Source: a virus. From it: a DNA stretch of 39,452 nucleotides. Each line of letters starts with the position of its first letter. The stretch's first letter is position 1. The position numbers and the translations under genes were made by a program. This document shows, in pieces, positions 1,376 to 7,975 of the stretch. The stretch spans positions 1 through 39,452 of IMG/VR virus record IMGVR_UViG_3300043392_000021; one strand, given 5' to 3'. The notes beneath the pieces are model-generated. The model did not search any database. It was not told the origin of the DNA and saw only the letters and a program-made list of their open reading frames with translations.

Positions 1376-1934
1376 ATTGGGCAAGCGATACGGCCGCCGC
1401 CATCAGCTGGACGTCAAGTCGCCAGCCGAAGCCGTCCGCGCGCTGTGCGCCAACTTCAAGGACTTCGCCGCGTTCGTTTCTTCGTCAACTGAGCGCAACA
1501 TCGGCTATCGCGTGCTGAACATGCGCGAGGAAGTCGGTGAGGACGAACTGCACAACCCCGCCGGCCAGCGCATCGCCATCGTGCCGGTGGTGGTCGGTGC
1601 TGGTGGCGCCCTGGGCAAGATCCTGCTGGGCGCCGCGCTGATCTTCGCGGCCACGTTCAACCCTTTCATCTTCCTGGGCGGGTCGGCCCTGCTGACCGGT
1701 GTCGTTGGCCAGATCGCGTTCGGCGTCGGCGTGTCGCTGGCCCTGAACGGCGTGTCGCAGCTGCTGGCGCCGACCAAGAAGGACGAGGAAAAGAAAGAGG
1801 ACAATTCCTACGTGTTCAACGGCGCGGTCAACACCACCACGCAGGGCCAGCCGGTTCCGCTTGGCTACGGCCGCATGATCGTGGGCAGCGCCATCATCAG
1901 CGCCGGCGTCAACGTGGAGGACATTGAGGTATGA
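1350..1934 (+). CDS. I: Tail assembly protein I (ubiquitin-like N-terminus, hydrophobic Gly-rich C-terminus)
   Basis: 194 aa. N-terminus MRTIILLGELGKRYG...; Gly/Ala-rich hydrophobic segment; ...PLGYGRMIVGSAIISAGV typical of the lambda I family. Synteny K-I-J. ATGA overlap with J. Confidence 0.85.
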   Translation: MRTIILLGELGKRYGRRHQLDVKSPAEAVRALCANFKDFAAFVSSSTERNIGYRVLNMREEVGEDELHNPAGQRIAIVPVVVGAGGALGKILLGAALIFAATFNPFIFLGGSALLTGVVGQIAFGVGVSLALNGVSQLLAPTKKDEEKKEDNSYVFNGAVNTTTQGQPVPLGYGRMIVGSAIISAGVNVEDIEV

Positions 1935-4900
1935 CGACACTGCGTTCGCGCGCCTATGGCCGCATCCTGGACCTGGTGTCCGAAGGCGAGATCGAGGGCC
2001 TGGTGGACGGCGCCAAGTCCATCTACCTGGACGACACGCCGCTGCAGAACCCGAACGGGTCCTACAACTTCCAGAACGTCACCTACGAAACCAGGTCCGG
2101 CAGCAACGACCAAAGCCACATCGCTGGTTTCCCGTCGGTCGAGGCCGAGAGCGTGGTCGGCCTGGAGGTCAAGAAGTCCGCATCGGTCACGCGCACGATT
2201 TCCAATCCCGACGTGGACGCGGTGCGTGTCACGGTTTCCCTGCCGGCGCTGTATCGGCAACAGGACGACGGCGACCTTAAGGGCACGTCCGTCAGCATCG
2301 CCATCGACGTGCAGAGCAATGGCGGCGGTTTTGTCCCGCAGATCATTTCCCGCCAATACCTGACCGAAACCACAACGATCAGCGCCGGCACGTTCAGGTC
2401 CGTGAGTTCCAACGTCTACGGCATGGCCCTGACCGTGCAGTGGGGCAATGTGGCCATCGACGAGATAACAAACGCCCCTGGGTTCGACGAAAGCATCCAT
2501 GTGGTGCAATACAAGGCATCGTCGGCCAGCACCTGGATCACCACGGACATCCGCCGCGTCATCGGTGAGAACAACACCGAAGCCACGTTCTACACCCCGA
2601 CGCTGCCGGCTGGTCAATATGACATCCGGGTCATCGCCACGGTGGGAACCAACCTGCCTCCTATCATTTCGGCATCCGCAGCCACCGGGTCGCCCTATGA
2701 CGTCATCAGCGGCAAGGCGCAGAGCAAATACCAGCGCAGCTATCGCGTCCAACTGTCCGGGTCTGGCCCGTGGGACATTCGCGTGCGCCGACTGACGGAC
2801 GACACCACCAGCCCCAAGATCCAGAACAAAACCTACTGGGACGGCTACACCGAGATCATCGACGCCAAGCTGCGCTACCCCAACAGCGCGCTGGTGGCCC
2901 TGAAGTTCGATGCGTCATCGTTCAGCGGCATCCCGCGCCGCGCCTATGACCTGAAGCTGCGCCGGGTCCAGGTGCCAATCAACTACAACCCCGTCACCAG
3001 GGCCTACACCGGCACCTGGAACGGCACGTTCAAGACAGCATGGACCGACAATCCGGCCTGGTGCTTCTATGACCTTGTGACCAATCCGCGCTACGGCCTG
3101 GGCGGGTTTGTTGACCCGGCCCAGGTGGACAAGTGGGCACTGTATTCCATCGGGCAATACTGCGACGAACTGGTGGACGACGGGTTCGGCGGCACCGAGC
3201 CGCGATTCACCTGCAACATCTACATGCAGAGCCGCGCCGAGGCCTACAAGGTGGTCCAGGACATGGCGTCCTGTTTCCGGTCGATGGTTTACTGGGCGTC
3301 CGGCAGCCTGACGCTATCCCAGGACGCGCCCAGCGACCCGGTGGCCCTGTTCACGCAGTCGAACGTGGTGGACGGCCTGTTCACCTATTCCGGCAGCAGC
3401 GCCAAGGCGCGGCACACCGTGGCGCTGGTCAGCTGGAACGACCCGGCCGACCTTTACAAGCAGAAGGTGGAATACGTCGAGGACCAGGACGCCATCGCCC
3501 GCTTTGGCGTGGTGCAGACCGAGATCGTGGCCACCGGCTGCACCAGTCGCGGCCAGGCCGCGCGCGTGGGCCGCTGGCTGCTGTATTCCGAGCGCTACGA
3601 GTCCGAGACGGTGACGTTCCGCACCGGCATCGAGGGCGCAGTGGCCAAGCCTGGCCAGATCGTCAAGGTGGCCGACGCATCGCGCGCCGGCGTGCGTCTT
3701 GGCGGCCGCGTCCGCAGCGCCACCACGTCGGCCATCACCCTAGACGCCCCTGTCACGCTTGGCACAGCCAGCTGGACCATCTACGCCATGCTGCCCGACG
3801 GCACCGTGGCCCAGGGGCAGGTGGCAAGCGCCAGCGGCAACACCGTGAACTTGGCGGCGCCGATCAGCGCAGCCCCGCAGCCTGGCGCCCAATGGATCAT
3901 GTCGGCCAGCAGCGTCGAGGCGCAAACCTTCCGCGTGCTGAGTGCTGTCGAGCAGGACCAGGGCATCGTGGAGATCACAGCGCTGCGGCACGACCCGGAC
4001 AAATACGACGCGGTCGAGAACGGCCTGGTGCTGCAGCCGCGCGACATCACCGAACTGACGCCTGTGCCGGCTGCGCCGACGGACCTGGTGGCCGCCGAGA
4101 ACCTTTACACCTACCAGGCCGAGGTTCGGGCCATGGTGAACATCGGCTGGAGCAACGTCCATGGCGCCAGCACCTACCGCGTGCAGTGGAGCAAGGACGA
4201 CGGCAACTTCGCAGAAGCTATCACCAGCACCAGCGACTACGACATCCTGGACATCACGCCCGGCACGTTCGTGGTGCGGGTCTATTCCATCGGCCCGACC
4301 GGCAAGCAGTCGGCCACCTATGCCGAGGCCACCATCACAGCGCTGGGCAAGACCGCGCCGCCGGCCAACGTGGTGAACCTGGCGTCCAGCATCGACAAGG
4401 ACATCGGCGTCACGCTGACCTGGGACAAGGTGGCCGACCTGGACCTGGACGTCTACGAGATCCGCCAGGGAACCAACTGGGACACGGCCACCGTCATCGG
4501 CCAGGTCAAGGCCACGGTCTACACCCTGGGCTACATCCCGACGGGCGGCCAGACCTACCTGGTGAAGGCGCTGGACACCACTGGCAACTACAGCACAACG
4601 GCTGCAGCCATCACGGTCAGCCTGTCGGCGCCAACCGCTGTGAGCCTGACGCAAGAGGTGATCGACAACAACGTGCTGCTGCGCTGGACCGCATCGAGCG
4701 CGTCGCTGACCATCCGCCACTACCTGGTGCGCCGTGGTTCCACCTGGGCCGGCGCCACCGAGATCGGAACCGTGGCCGGCTTGTTCAGCGCGATTTTTGA
4801 GACCGTCGCCGGCACGTTCACCTACTGGGTGGCCGCCGTGGACCTGGCTGGCAACGTGGGCACGCCGACGCCCGTCAGCGCCCTGGTGAGCCAGCCGCCG

Positions 4901-5614
4901 GACTACCAGCTGAAGCTGAACCAGAACAGCACGTTCAGCGGCACCAAGTCGAACATGGCGGCCATGGATGGCGCCTACCTGGCCCCGGCAGACACCAGCG
5001 AGACCTGGCAGAGTCACTTCACCAGCCGAGGCTGGACGACGCCACAGGACCAGATCAACGCCGGGTTCCCGGTCTACGCCATGCCGGCGCCGACCAGCGG
5101 CTACTACGAGGAAATCATCGACTACGGGTCCGTCCTGGCCAGCACCAAGATCGGCGTCACGCTGTCCTATGTGACGAGCGCCGGCACGGTCACCGTCACA
5201 CCCACCATCAGCGTGCGCAAGCTGACCACCGACCCGTGGACCAACTACGCTGGCCTGTCGTCGGTGTTCGCCACGGACTTCCGCTATGTGAAGGTCCGAT
5301 TCGACTTCGCCGGCAGCGGGAATGACGACTTCATCACCATCACCGGCATGAACGTGCGCATGGACGTCAAGCTGAAGAACGACGCCGGCACTGGCACGGC
5401 GGTGTCCACCGACAGCGGCGGCACCCCGGTGAACTTTAATGTGAGTTTCATCGACATCGAGAGCATTACCGTGACGCCATCGGGCACAGCGGCGCGGATT
5501 GCGGTTTATGATTTCGTTGACGTTCCCAATCCAACAAGTTTCAAAGTTCTATTGTTCGACACAGCCGGCAACCGCGTCAGCGGCGGGTTCAGCTGGTCGG
5601 CCAAGGGGGTCTAA
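1931..5614 (+). CDS. J: Tail tip / host specificity protein J with fibronectin-III-like repeats
   Basis: 1227 aa. N-terminus RILDLVSEGEIEGLVDGAKSIYLDDTPLQNPNGSYNFQNV... and the central YDLKLRRVQVPINY...WTDNPAWCFYDLVTNPRYGLG match the gpJ pattern. About three FN3-like repeats (e.g. YRVQWSKDDGNF..., VYEIRQGTNWDTA..., YLVRRGSTWAGA...). Confidence 0.92.
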   Translation: MTTLRSRAYGRILDLVSEGEIEGLVDGAKSIYLDDTPLQNPNGSYNFQNVTYETRSGSNDQSHIAGFPSVEAESVVGLEVKKSASVTRTISNPDVDAVRVTVSLPALYRQQDDGDLKGTSVSIAIDVQSNGGGFVPQIISRQYLTETTTISAGTFRSVSSNVYGMALTVQWGNVAIDEITNAPGFDESIHVVQYKASSASTWITTDIRRVIGENNTEATFYTPTLPAGQYDIRVIATVGTNLPPIISASAATGSPYDVISGKAQSKYQRSYRVQLSGSGPWDIRVRRLTDDTTSPKIQNKTYWDGYTEIIDAKLRYPNSALVALKFDASSFSGIPRRAYDLKLRRVQVPINYNPVTRAYTGTWNGTFKTAWTDNPAWCFYDLVTNPRYGLGGFVDPAQVDKWALYSIGQYCDELVDDGFGGTEPRFTCNIYMQSRAEAYKVVQDMASCFRSMVYWASGSLTLSQDAPSDPVALFTQSNVVDGLFTYSGSSAKARHTVALVSWNDPADLYKQKVEYVEDQDAIARFGVVQTEIVATGCTSRGQAARVGRWLLYSERYESETVTFRTGIEGAVAKPGQIVKVADASRAGVRLGGRVRSATTSAITLDAPVTLGTASWTIYAMLPDGTVAQGQVASASGNTVNLAAPISAAPQPGAQWIMSASSVEAQTFRVLSAVEQDQGIVEITALRHDPDKYDAVENGLVLQPRDITELTPVPAAPTDLVAAENLYTYQAEVRAMVNIGWSNVHGASTYRVQWSKDDGNFAEAITSTSDYDILDITPGTFVVRVYSIGPTGKQSATYAEATITALGKTAPPANVVNLASSIDKDIGVTLTWDKVADLDLDVYEIRQGTNWDTATVIGQVKATVYTLGYIPTGGQTYLVKALDTTGNYSTTAAAITVSLSAPTAVSLTQEVIDNNVLLRWTASSASLTIRHYLVRRGSTWAGATEIGTVAGLFSAIFETVAGTFTYWVAAVDLAGNVGTPTPVSALVSQPPDYQLKLNQNSTFSGTKSNMAAMDGAYLAPADTSETWQSHFTSRGWTTPQDQINAGFPVYAMPAPTSGYYEEIIDYGSVLASTKIGVTLSYVTSAGTVTVTPTISVRKLTTDPWTNYAGLSSVFATDFRYVKVRFDFAGSGNDDFITITGMNVRMDVKLKNDAGTGTAVSTDSGGTPVNFNVSFIDIESITVTPSGTAARIAVYDFVDVPNPTSFKVLLFDTAGNRVSGGFSWSAKGV

Positions 5615-6454
5615 ATGGCGAACTGGGCCAATCCAACACTTACCAGCACTTACACAAACTTCGTCACCGAGGTGAAGGACCGCGACGTCGAAGTCGCGCT
5701 GTGGTTTGAGGGCGCATCGCCCACGAACCTGCCGACCAACGCCAAGCGCCTGAACACGTCCACCGGCCGCTTCGAGAAGTGGAACGGCAGCGACTGGGTG
5801 GACGCGGTGGCCACGTTCACATTCCCCGCCCTGTCGGTCGCTGGCACCCTGGCGGTGACCGGCGCGGCCACGTTCAGCAGCACCGTGGCGCTGTCCGCAG
5901 ACCCGACCACCGCGCTGCAGGCGGCGACCAAGCAATACGTCGACAACGGCCTGACGCCGAAGGCCAACCTGGCCAGCCCAACGTTCACCGGCACGCCGGC
6001 GGCGCCGACGGCAGCCGTGGACACCAACACCACGCAACTGGCCACGACGGCGTTCGTGATCGGCCAGGGCTACGCGAAGCTGGCGTCGCCCACGTTCACC
6101 GGCACGGTGACCGCAGCAGCGCTGACCGCCACCGGCCAGGTGACGTTCAGCAGCACCGGCGCGGCCGTCCTGAACAAGGGCACCACGGCACAGCGCCCGA
6201 CGCCGGTGTCCGGCATGCTGCGGTTCAACACCACCGACAACAAGTTCGAGGGCTACAACGGCAGCGCCTGGGGCAGCATCGGCGGCGGCGCAACCGGTGG
6301 CGGGTCTGACGACATCTTCTACGAGAACGGCCAGACCGTCACGACCAGCTACAGCATCACGTCCGGCAAAAACGCTATGTCGGCCGGTCCCGTTACAATC
6401 GCGTCCGGCGTCACCGTCACGGTGCCGTCGGGCAGCACCTGGGTGGTGATCTAA
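5615..6454 (+). CDS. Tail fibre protein
   Basis: 279 aa, immediately after J. Duplicated fibre motif LASPTFTGTPAAPTAAVDTNTTQLATTAFV / LASPTFTGTVTAAAL. Also RFNTTDNKFEGYNGSAWGSIGG and the C-terminal ...GVTVTVPSGSTWVVI typical of phage fibres. Confidence 0.8.
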   Translation: MANWANPTLTSTYTNFVTEVKDRDVEVALWFEGASPTNLPTNAKRLNTSTGRFEKWNGSDWVDAVATFTFPALSVAGTLAVTGAATFSSTVALSADPTTALQAATKQYVDNGLTPKANLASPTFTGTPAAPTAAVDTNTTQLATTAFVIGQGYAKLASPTFTGTVTAAALTATGQVTFSSTGAAVLNKGTTAQRPTPVSGMLRFNTTDNKFEGYNGSAWGSIGGGATGGGSDDIFYENGQTVTTSYSITSGKNAMSAGPVTIASGVTVTVPSGSTWVVI

Positions 6455-6811
6455 ATGTCCATTCTCAAAGTCAACGCAGTCCAAGGCACCGACGGCATCG
6501 AGCGCTACCTGGCGCGCGCCTGGGTGAACTTCAACGGCACCGGAACCGTGGCGATCCGCGCCAGCGGCAATGTGTCGAGCATCACCGACAACGGCACCGG
6601 CAACTACCGGATCAACTTCACCAACGCCATGCCCGACGCCAATTTCGCATTCAGCGGCGGCTACAAGGCTGCAGACGACAGCACCGGCAGCAATTCGGAC
6701 GGCAACATCGCGCCGTTTTCGTTTTCCACGACTGGCGTCAGCGTCCTGACGCTGAACGGCGCGGCTGCTGTCAATGACTGCGCCATCGTCTGCGCAGCGA
6801 TCTACCGATAA
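6455..6811 (+). CDS. Small fibre-associated protein, paralogue 1 (putative receptor-binding tip)
   Basis: 118 aa. The ATG directly abuts the fibre stop. Shares AWVNF(N/G)GTGTVAIR.S.NV.S.TDNGTG.Y...FTN and the C-terminal CAA..R with 6821-7204. N-terminus MSILKVNAVQ resembles the next two ORFs. Confidence 0.7.
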   Translation: MSILKVNAVQGTDGIERYLARAWVNFNGTGTVAIRASGNVSSITDNGTGNYRINFTNAMPDANFAFSGGYKAADDSTGSNSDGNIAPFSFSTTGVSVLTLNGAAAVNDCAIVCAAIYR

Positions 6812-6820
6812 GGCGACACC

Positions 6821-7204
6821 ATGAGCATCGCAAAATTCGACACCCTGCAGAACGCCGCTGGCAGCAAGTCCGTGCCGGTGGCCACCGTGGTCGATGGCAG
6901 CGCCAAGGCGTGGGTGAACTTTGGCGGCACTGGCACGGTGGCAATCCGGTCCAGCTTCAACGTCACCAGCGTGACCGACAACGGCACCGGCGACTACACC
7001 GTGCTGTTCACCAACACCCTGGCCGACAGCAACATTGCATTGGCAGGCATGGGGCGGCGTTCCACAGCCGGCACCAACATTGCCCAGCTGGAACTCGCGG
7101 CCAGTTCCGGAAGCTATGGCAACTGGGGGTTCCAGGTCAAAATTTTCGACAACGCCGGCGCCCAGGTGGACGCCGAGTCCGTCATGTGCGCGGCGTTCCG
7201 ATAA
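6821..7204 (+). CDS. Small fibre-associated protein, paralogue 2 (putative receptor-binding tip)
   Basis: 127 aa. Clear paralogue of 6455-6811 (KAWVNFGGTGTVAIRSSFNVTSVTDNGTGDYTVLFTN...MCAAFR). N-terminus MSIAKFDTLQ. Confidence 0.7.
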   Translation: MSIAKFDTLQNAAGSKSVPVATVVDGSAKAWVNFGGTGTVAIRSSFNVTSVTDNGTGDYTVLFTNTLADSNIALAGMGRRSTAGTNIAQLELAASSGSYGNWGFQVKIFDNAGAQVDAESVMCAAFR

Positions 7205-7225
7205 TCAGAAAGGCAGGGCCGATGT

Positions 7226-7543
7226 GTGAGCACACTCAAAGTCAACAACATTCAAACCACCGCTGGCGTGGACCAGTTCGCAAACCTGGAGGCGTCCAGC
7301 GGCTACCAAAAACTGCCAGGCGGACTGATTATTCAGTGGGGAATTGGCGCAGCCAACACGGCGGTCACGTTCCCCATTGCGTTTCCTACTGCTGTTTTGA
7401 ATTGCGTGGTCACCACCAATTCCAGCAACACCGCCAGTAGCAACATTTCGCACGCGCATTTCCACCTGGCCACGCTGACCACGACTGGGTTCACGCGGAC
7501 CAATGACACCTACGGCTGCCGCTACATCGCCATTGGCTACTAA
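7226..7543 (+). CDS. Small fibre-tip protein (gp53-like C-terminal fibre domain type)
   Basis: GTG start. 105 aa. N-terminus MSTLKVNNIQTTAG is shared with the two upstream ORFs. LPGGLIIQWG...VTFPIAFPTAVLNCV is a motif I associate with phage tail-fibre C-terminal domains. Confidence 0.65.
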   Translation: MSTLKVNNIQTTAGVDQFANLEASSGYQKLPGGLIIQWGIGAANTAVTFPIAFPTAVLNCVVTTNSSNTASSNISHAHFHLATLTTTGFTRTNDTYGCRYIAIGY

Positions 7544-7555
7544 GAGGACCACACC

Positions 7556-7750
7556 ATGCAAGACAAGCGCATCATCTACCCCACGCCCGACGGCGGCGTG
7601 GCAATCATCATCCCGGCGCCCGACTGCGGCCTGAGCATCGAGGAAATCGCCCGCAAGGACGTGCCCGCCGGCGTGGACTACCGCATCGTTGACGTGTCGG
7701 ACATCCCGGCCGACCGCACGTTCCGCAACGCCTGGGAATATGGAGCCTAA
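7556..7750 (+). CDS. Hypothetical phage protein
   Basis: 64 aa. AAGAGGA ribosome-binding site a few nt upstream. GC-rich codon third positions consistent with neighbouring genes. Confidence 0.6.
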   Translation: MQDKRIIYPTPDGGVAIIIPAPDCGLSIEEIARKDVPAGVDYRIVDVSDIPADRTFRNAWEYGA

Positions 7751-7753
7751 GCC

Positions 7754-7975
7754 ATGATCCGCATCAACATCGAGAAAGCCAAGAACATCGCCCACGACGT
7801 GCGCCGCGCCAAGCGCGCCGAGGAATTCGCGCCGCTGGACGTCAAGGCCACCATCCCGGCCGAGGCCAAGGCAGCCGAGGCGGCCCGCCAGGCCGTGCGC
7901 GACAAGTATGCCGACATGCAGGCGGCCATCGACCAAGCGGCCACGCCGGACGAACTGAAAGCGATCATTTCGTGA
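7754..7975 (+). CDS. Hypothetical phage protein (Ala/Lys-rich helical)
   Basis: 73 aa. Starts 3 nt after the previous stop. Its stop overlaps the next GTG (GTGA). Confidence 0.55.
   Translation: MIRINIEKAKNIAHDVRRAKRAEEFAPLDVKATIPAEAKAAEAARQAVRDKYADMQAAIDQAATPDELKAIIS

Follow-up and report, generated by a model that had tools for sequence, protein, structure and literature searches.

Small fibre-tip type proteins downstream of a phage side fibre and a common C-terminal fibre domain as their candidate connector

The side fibre, the small proteins behind it and their neighbours

The window analysed here is the whole 39,452-bp stretch of IMG/VR virus record IMGVR_UViG_3300043392_000021, a complete viral genome with direct terminal repeats, and its lambda-like tail module carries three small open reading frames (ORFs), termed mini1, mini2 and mini3, immediately behind the gene of a 279-amino-acid (aa) side tail fibre. 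The genes run in the order J, side fibre, mini1, mini2, mini3, p64, p73 and lysis genes (all coordinates below refer to the + strand), the intergenic gaps are short or zero, and the locus reads as one operon. A sequence-only reading of the window had reported that the three ORF products (118, 127 and 105 aa) share an N-terminal peptide, and this is confirmed: all three align on the motif M-S-[IT]-x-K-[VF]-[ND]-x-x-Q-x-x-x-G, a peptide of about 14 aa. Three names coined in this analysis are used throughout, 'plug' for the N-terminal peptide, 'dock' for the C-terminal domain of the fibre and 'WVNF' for a head domain, after its invariant motif.

Each mini combines a plug with a compact head. Mini1 (6455-6811) consists of a plug (residues 1-19) and a WVNF head in its short N-terminal form, mini2 (6821-7204) of a plug with a longer linker (residues 1-29) and a second WVNF head, and mini3 (7226-7543) of a plug (residues 1-14) and a Gp53-like_C or pyocin-foot head (PF21882). 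The start codon of mini1 abuts the stop codon of the fibre (TAAATG), while mini3 begins at a GTG (7226) whose homologous codon is ATG or GTG in sister phages. All three have their own start codon and a Shine-Dalgarno-like sequence, and the ratio of nonsynonymous to synonymous substitution rates (dN/dS) of 0.07-0.30 against sister phages indicates purifying selection, so that the minis can be regarded as genuine coding genes. A search within the locus detected no notable promoter, terminator or invertible repeat, and shufflon-like or invertible switching, as well as control by internal promoters or terminators, was rejected for want of convincing repeats or signals there.

The similarity of the minis divides sharply between plug and head. 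Mini1 and mini2 are paralogues over their full length (38% identity, E 7e-22), as had been proposed from the sequence, whereas mini1 and mini3 are alike in residues 1-18 only (9/18 identical, E 1e-4), and mini2 and mini3 give no significant BLASTP match, though the N-terminal motif aligns. When a relaxed form of the motif was sought at ORF starts across the 39.4-kb genome, it recovered only mini1-3 on the + strand, plus two short spurious matches on the minus strand. The shared residues are not spelled by shared codons: Ser2 is encoded by TCC in mini1 and by AGC in mini2 and mini3, and the hydrophobic positions also differ in codons. Among the loci collected for comparison (L numbers), L055-L057, from a phage of 37.6% GC, encode the same first 14 aa as mini3 although 10 of the 42 nucleotides (nt) differ, and the same plug occurs on unrelated bodies in phages of 37.6% and 64% GC with synonymous codon changes. 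Because the residues are kept while the codons differ, conservation of the plug is selected at the protein level. The mini3-like N-terminus of L055 sits on a 175-aa protein (L055:2119-2646, also in L056-L058) that has no phmmer match to mini1, mini2 or mini3, and in L055 three plug-bearing proteins alternate with chaperone-like genes of about 100 aa.

More generally, plugs follow a strand-like pattern of a small residue 2, alternating hydrophobics and then a turn rich in Gly, Asn, Ser or Thr, and fall into recurring types such as MSTLKV.., MPIAINGSG.., MPVKLNS.. and MSKVKITGD... In the AlphaFold2 (AF2) model of mini1, residues 1-19 have a predicted local distance difference test score (pLDDT) of 61-78, the plug being flexible in this monomer model. 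The possibility that the plug is simply the linker that precedes WVNF in long fibres was rejected, as these fibres carry a different segment there ('...LNASGSAPIYACRA').

The heads resemble the ends of known fibres. The domain of mini1 and mini2 is covered by the phrog_11355 'tail fiber protein' profile (2.3e-19 and 2.2e-19, respectively), and WVNF forms the C-terminal domain of fibres of 200-830 aa in about 35 loci, while elsewhere it occurs as stand-alone proteins of 110-135 aa, often in tandem. The AF2 model of mini1, built from an 86-sequence alignment, has a mean pLDDT of 87.6 and folds residues 20-118 into an eight-strand beta-sandwich, with body values mostly >90 and a single dip to ~66 at residues 71-80. 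Its best Foldseek matches are the phiAB6 tailspike, the R1 pyocin fibre, the receptor-binding domain of the cyanophage Pam1 tailspike and the Helix pomatia H-type lectin, which are weak (E >=0.005) yet consistent in kind, being C-terminal tailspike or fibre domains and a lectin.

In WVNF domains as a family, strands one to three hardly vary and the C-terminal half is highly variable, a division also visible in mini2 and its L143 orthologue, which are 73% identical over the first 83 aa and divergent afterwards. These strands, in the N-terminal half (6515-6625 in mini1; 6905-7015 in mini2), retain 70-80% identity even among very distant phages, with the C-terminal half hypervariable. The conserved half may provide a face for oligomerisation or for the binding of a chaperone, and the variable half is as expected of a receptor-binding surface.

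For mini3, the different, fibre-tip type body that had been recognised from the letters is borne out by a match to PF21882 Gp53-like_C of 69.2 bits (cut-off 24.9; 4.5e-19), with model positions 1-84/84 placed on residues 29-105, and by matches to solved tips, namely gp53 of Acinetobacter phage AP22 (PDB 4mtm, 1.2e-6) and the R1/R2 pyocin fibres (1e-3 to 1e-2). Orthologues of mini3 of 105-108 aa share its N-terminus. None of mini1-3 matches a chaperone family (Tfa, gpG, gp38 and similar) in Pfam, PHROG or NCBIfam. By the homology of their heads to fibre C-termini, the minis can be classed as fibre-tip type modules.

Upstream, the side fibre (5615-6454), which has many PHROG tail-fibre matches, is composed of an N-terminal attachment region, a repeat shaft, a Gly-rich linker and the C-terminal dock. 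The shaft matches PDB 9k09, a 'tail fiber protein' (7e-4), and the fibre as a whole is 51% identical to that of the sister phage represented by L141. It is preceded by J, a 1227-aa central tail fibre or tip attachment protein (1931-5614; Pfam FNIII-A_GpJ 9.8e-39 and Phage-tail_3 1.1e-27; phrog_31 1e-286).

Downstream of the minis lie p64 (7556-7750, 64 aa) and p73 (7754-7975, 73 aa), the two halves of what is probably one factor, as p64 and p73 form a single fused protein of ~135-160 aa in L012, L016, L036, L043, L141 and L143. The pair belongs to no Pfam family, and its sole PHROG match is that of p73 to phrog_20196 (2e-5), a family of unknown function. Downstream of the WVNF domain, 44 of 52 genome loci have a p64 homologue, both where the domain sits on a long fibre and where it sits on a mini, and the pair is probably a dedicated folding or assembly factor of the WVNF head.

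The arrangement recurs in sister phages. L143 and L144/L145 have a fibre, a short-N WVNF mini, a long-N WVNF mini, a Gp53-like mini and p64/p73 in that order, and in the 39-kb genome of sister phage L141 a pair of WVNF minis is followed by the fused p64/p73 and then the Gp53-like mini. Since these loci keep the arrangement, the tip set is stable in this lineage while the head sequences diverge (50-75% identity). L145 has an additional gene for a 398-aa Collar-domain fibre between p73 and the lysozyme gene (L145:3421-4617), which the window lacks.

The dock family and the order of dock and plug

The dock occupies fibre residues 224-279 (6284-6451), and its last ~48 aa, following the Gly-rich linker, are strongly conserved, with 73% mean column identity in the alignment of the family (alignment A2). 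Pfam and NCBIfam assign it to no family, and the PDB contains no related sequence. When a profile of the dock was run against 1.84 billion representative proteins, 9,095 clusters (50% identity representatives) matched at E<=1e-3, of which 5,528 reached E<=1e-10. In 149 of the best 150 clusters the dock ends exactly at the C-terminus of the protein, the proteins themselves ranging from 60 to 1,257 aa. The dock is a very large unannotated family that is essentially always C-terminal. Its AF2 model (pLDDT 84-97) is compact and made up of numerous very short strands.

The sequence-only reading had considered separate mini-genes in place of one long fibre gene to be unusual, and here it is contradicted, as the layout is very common in phages. 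At least 566 loci in IMG/VR have a dock, as do 48 cultured-phage records, spanning podo-, myo- and siphophages and including T7-like cyanopodophages (P-SSP7 gp17, S-SBP1), the T4-like cyanomyophages S-CAM7, S-T4, P-TIM68 and P-HM2, and phages of Lentibacter, Methylophilales and Vibrio. The contig MW202867 of the Manatee Spring phage (L001/L002) bears the title 'Myoviridae sp.' although one of its genes is annotated 'T7-like tail fiber'. This contig encodes the same dock, p64/p73 and three WVNF minis, which lie on both sides of p64/p73.

Position and sequence both tie the plug to the dock. Where sequence is available downstream of a dock-ending ORF, the next ORF begins -4 to +19 nt past the stop codon in 82 of 83 cases. 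The N-termini encoded immediately after a dock fit the plug pattern in 90% of 51 unique sequences, compared with 18% of 359 control N-termini that still include later members of the same arrays. The bodies behind these plugs are diverse (WVNF, Gp53-like and several others), and the WVNF family itself separates by context, with a dock upstream of 11 of the 13 WVNF proteins that have <=40 aa before the domain and of 0 of the 24 long fibres ending in WVNF. Such patterns would be expected if an N-terminal peptide plugged into the C-terminal domain of the preceding protein. Some proteins of 57-82 aa have no parts other than a plug, a Gly linker and a dock (L004:1076-1294, L055:166-339, L068:4238-4453 and L090:4331-4579), and these may be adaptors that extend or branch a fibre. 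A copy-number survey of related loci, one of the checks proposed from the sequence, found that the number of tips per array varies from 1 to >4, as counted by an imprecise gene-walk.

Comparison with known receptor-binding systems

The assembly of one fibre from several gene products is familiar from the long tail fibre of T4, in which the separate products gp34, gp35, gp36 and gp37 are joined end to end non-covalently with the aid of dedicated chaperones. The T4 fibre has no sequence relationship to the one described here, and it is built of long trimers in series and not of small alternative heads. The tip of AP22 gp53 (4mtm) and the R1/R2 pyocin foot (6cl5, 6cxb, 6ct8) belong to the same family as the body of mini3, and the mini1 model weakly resembles the R1 pyocin foot. 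There a long fibre carries the domain covalently at its C-terminal end, while mini3 is a stand-alone 105-aa protein with a plug.

A close counterpart of the whole layout is found in P-SSP7, a T7-like podophage, in contrast to the lambda-like siphophage of the window. Its fibre (gene 36/gp17) ends in the same dock, residues 226-279 of the window fibre being 63% identical to gp17 residues 662-715 over 54 aa (E 3.9e-20), and small fibre-like genes 37-39 (and 41) are packed downstream, with plug-like, strand-like N-termini and a small chaperone-like gene interspersed. Immediately behind the fibre gene, genes 37, 38 and 39 make up a cassette of paralogues. Of the resistance-breaking (host-range) mutants, three independent ones that were fully sequenced each had mutations in both gene 37 and gene 38, and the majority of the other isolates were mutated in gene 23, 37 or 38 (PMC5520035). 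The authors proposed unrecognised host-recognition proteins, without structural evidence (Schwartz & Lindell 2017, PMC5520035). By analogy, these mutations support a role of the minis in receptor recognition. Homology between the cassette bodies and the minis was rejected, as BLASTP gave no match better than E 0.09, and the two systems are in a sense reversed: the P-SSP7 paralogues share bodies and differ at their N-termini, whereas the window has three bodies, two of them paralogous, on one N-terminal type. Cryo-electron microscopy of P-SSP7 and P-SCSP1u resolves the fibre N-terminus only, and a literature search found no structural model of the P-SSP7 cassette.

Docking through a short peptide is itself established. 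In K1-5/SP6 (gp37), G7C (gp66/gp63.1) and KP32 (RBP1/RBP2), a short N-terminal peptide docks a secondary receptor-binding protein (RBP) onto a domain of the primary fibre or of an adaptor, and the pairing of an anchor-branch peptide (7-29 aa) with its domain has been validated experimentally (Latka 2019, PMC6872550; Latka 2026, PMC13352976). As in the minis, the anchor domain of the secondary RBP is replaced by a short, conserved peptide at the N-terminus. The docking domain of those systems resembles T4 gp10 and is N-proximal in RBP1, whereas the candidate dock of the window is a different domain, with no match to the T4 gp10-like branching domain, and lies at the extreme C-terminus; their tips are depolymerase tailspikes, and those of the window are lectin-like heads of ~100 aa.

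Two further systems share parts of the architecture. For the T5-like phages DT57C and DT571/2, the LtfA/LtfB lateral fibres are proposed to be branched and to extend host range (PMC4728585); these siphophages build a side fibre from two gene products, which are large and of another family, and the abstract of that study describes no short-plug/C-terminal-dock syntax. The podophages A1002, GP4 and VP1 have chain-like fibres of 140-171-aa subunits held on a dock by beta-sheet augmentation (PMC13730344). These subunits, like the minis, are small and separately encoded, and two paralogous types occur per fibre, with the differences that the strand is supplied by a nozzle 'rope' protein and that the subunits are dimers (PMC13730344). 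The top Foldseek results for mini1 contain no fold of the 8jou type.

A proposed mechanism and its alternatives

Taken together, the three ORFs probably encode separate fibre tips that are plugged non-covalently into the dock of the side fibre and present their heads to the host surface, with help from p64/p73. In this scheme a fibre trimer would be held to the tail tip by its N-terminus, its C-terminal dock of ~48 aa would take up the plug peptides of the minis, and the minis would expose lectin-like heads to host surface structures, probably glycans, while p64/p73 would probably assist the folding or assembly of the WVNF heads. We infer that the minis are carried in virions and that their heads bind receptors. 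Alternative or mixed occupancy of equivalent sites is favoured over a serial chain, because the plugs of the minis are of one type and their domains are found in terminal position elsewhere, and under such occupancy the fibre population, or single fibres, would display several specificities; competition of the three tips for the same site would give mixed fibres and could broaden the host range. The sequence-only reading had placed a common docking site either on the fibre or on J; the comparative evidence, with its tight link between plug and C-terminal dock, favours the fibre over J.

Several considerations weigh against the proposal. The support for physical binding of plug and dock is comparative, and adjacency and co-occurrence could be explained by a shared operon history instead of contact. 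The existence of several plug types, together with the P-SSP7 paralogues that differ at their N-termini, makes a single common site uncertain. The dock model has no solved structural relative, and hence no known peptide-binding fold backs the docking step. One trimeric fibre end is not obviously able to hold three different trimeric tips together. Lastly, a literature search returned no virion proteomics in which such mini proteins were detected.

The minis could instead be virion adhesins attached elsewhere, to J, to the shaft or to each other, with the C-terminal domain of the fibre acting only as a cap or folding nucleus and the shared N-terminus binding another conserved partner, for example the p64/p73 factor. 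A conserved partner other than the dock does exist, in that p64 homologues track WVNF with or without a dock, and the want of a known peptide-binding fold in the dock points the same way. Nevertheless, this arrangement is unlikely. Mini3-type and many non-WVNF bodies bear the same plug without p64 specificity, and the dock-then-plug syntax persists in podo-, myo- and siphophages without J. Because the long WVNF fibres carry p64 and have neither plug nor dock, p64 tracks the head and not the plug. Slightly less likely again is the co-assembly of the minis, through their similar N-termini, into one heterotrimeric cap, such that each fibre would end in three different heads. The three same-type plugs of the window recur in L143, L145, L004, L055-57 and L068, and the very small heads lack a trimerising shaft, all of which such a cap would accommodate, but the Gp53-like and pyocin-foot domains are generally known to be homotrimeric in crystals (4mtm, 6cl5), and the array sizes of 1 to >4 from the imprecise gene-walk conflict with it. 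A fixed number of three tips per dock was rejected on the same array sizes.

It is improbable that the minis are non-structural, whether as fibre chaperones or as lysogenic-conversion or receptor-masking proteins encoded between the tail and lysis modules. Homologues of their bodies form the terminal domains of real fibres, separate chaperone-like genes are already present (p64/p73 here, phrog_9114-type proteins in other arrays), the minis have neither signal peptides nor transmembrane segments, and the host-range mutations of P-SSP7 fall in phage genes (PMC5520035). On the other side stand the facts that small genes behind fibre genes often encode chaperones and that a site just ahead of the lysis genes is classic for morons, as well as the silence of the proteomic literature on such minis. 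The least probable explanation, with hardly any likelihood left to it, is that the ORFs together represent a single long fibre gene, whether joined by stop-codon read-through or left behind by decay. J, the fibre, mini1-3, p64 and p73 do lie in one frame, the first six ending in TAA and p73 in TGA, and by a hand count 24 of 39 junction gaps across loci are multiples of three. In L141, L143 and L145, however, the gaps are -4, 5, 8, 10 and 16 nt and TGA, TAA and TAG stops are mixed. Read-through or a split gene is largely refuted by these differences in frames, gaps and stops between sister phages, and the shared frame and TAA stops of the window are coincidental. The separate start codons and Shine-Dalgarno-like sequences, the dN/dS values of the minis and the placement of the dock at the very C-terminus also count against a single gene. 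It should be noted that short gaps of 9 or 12 nt are common across loci.

The proposal of tips plugged into the fibre dock can be extended to phages at large. Dock and plug, the latter an N-terminal strand peptide of 12-20 aa, may together constitute a general, portable connector by which podo-, myo- and siphophages bolt heads and plug+dock extensions onto a common fibre, a generalisation given slightly less than an even chance. Beta-strand complementation, comparable to the donor-strand exchange of pili, may make the join itself. Should the connector be real, each side fibre of this phage could carry up to three different lectin-like heads.

The apparent oddity of the window is that of an ordinary member of a widespread layout, and the locus is a variant of known multi-part and branched receptor-binding systems that points to a very large unannotated connector domain. 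If the pairing of plug and dock is real, an abundant domain at the ends of fibres such as those of P-SSP7 and S-CAM7 would gain a proposed function. It would also explain why host-range mutations of marine podophages fall in the island downstream of the fibre gene and why this island is the most variable part of their genomes, and receptor-binding heads could be exchanged, by way of a small and well-defined handle, among otherwise unrelated phages that infect environmental bacteria.

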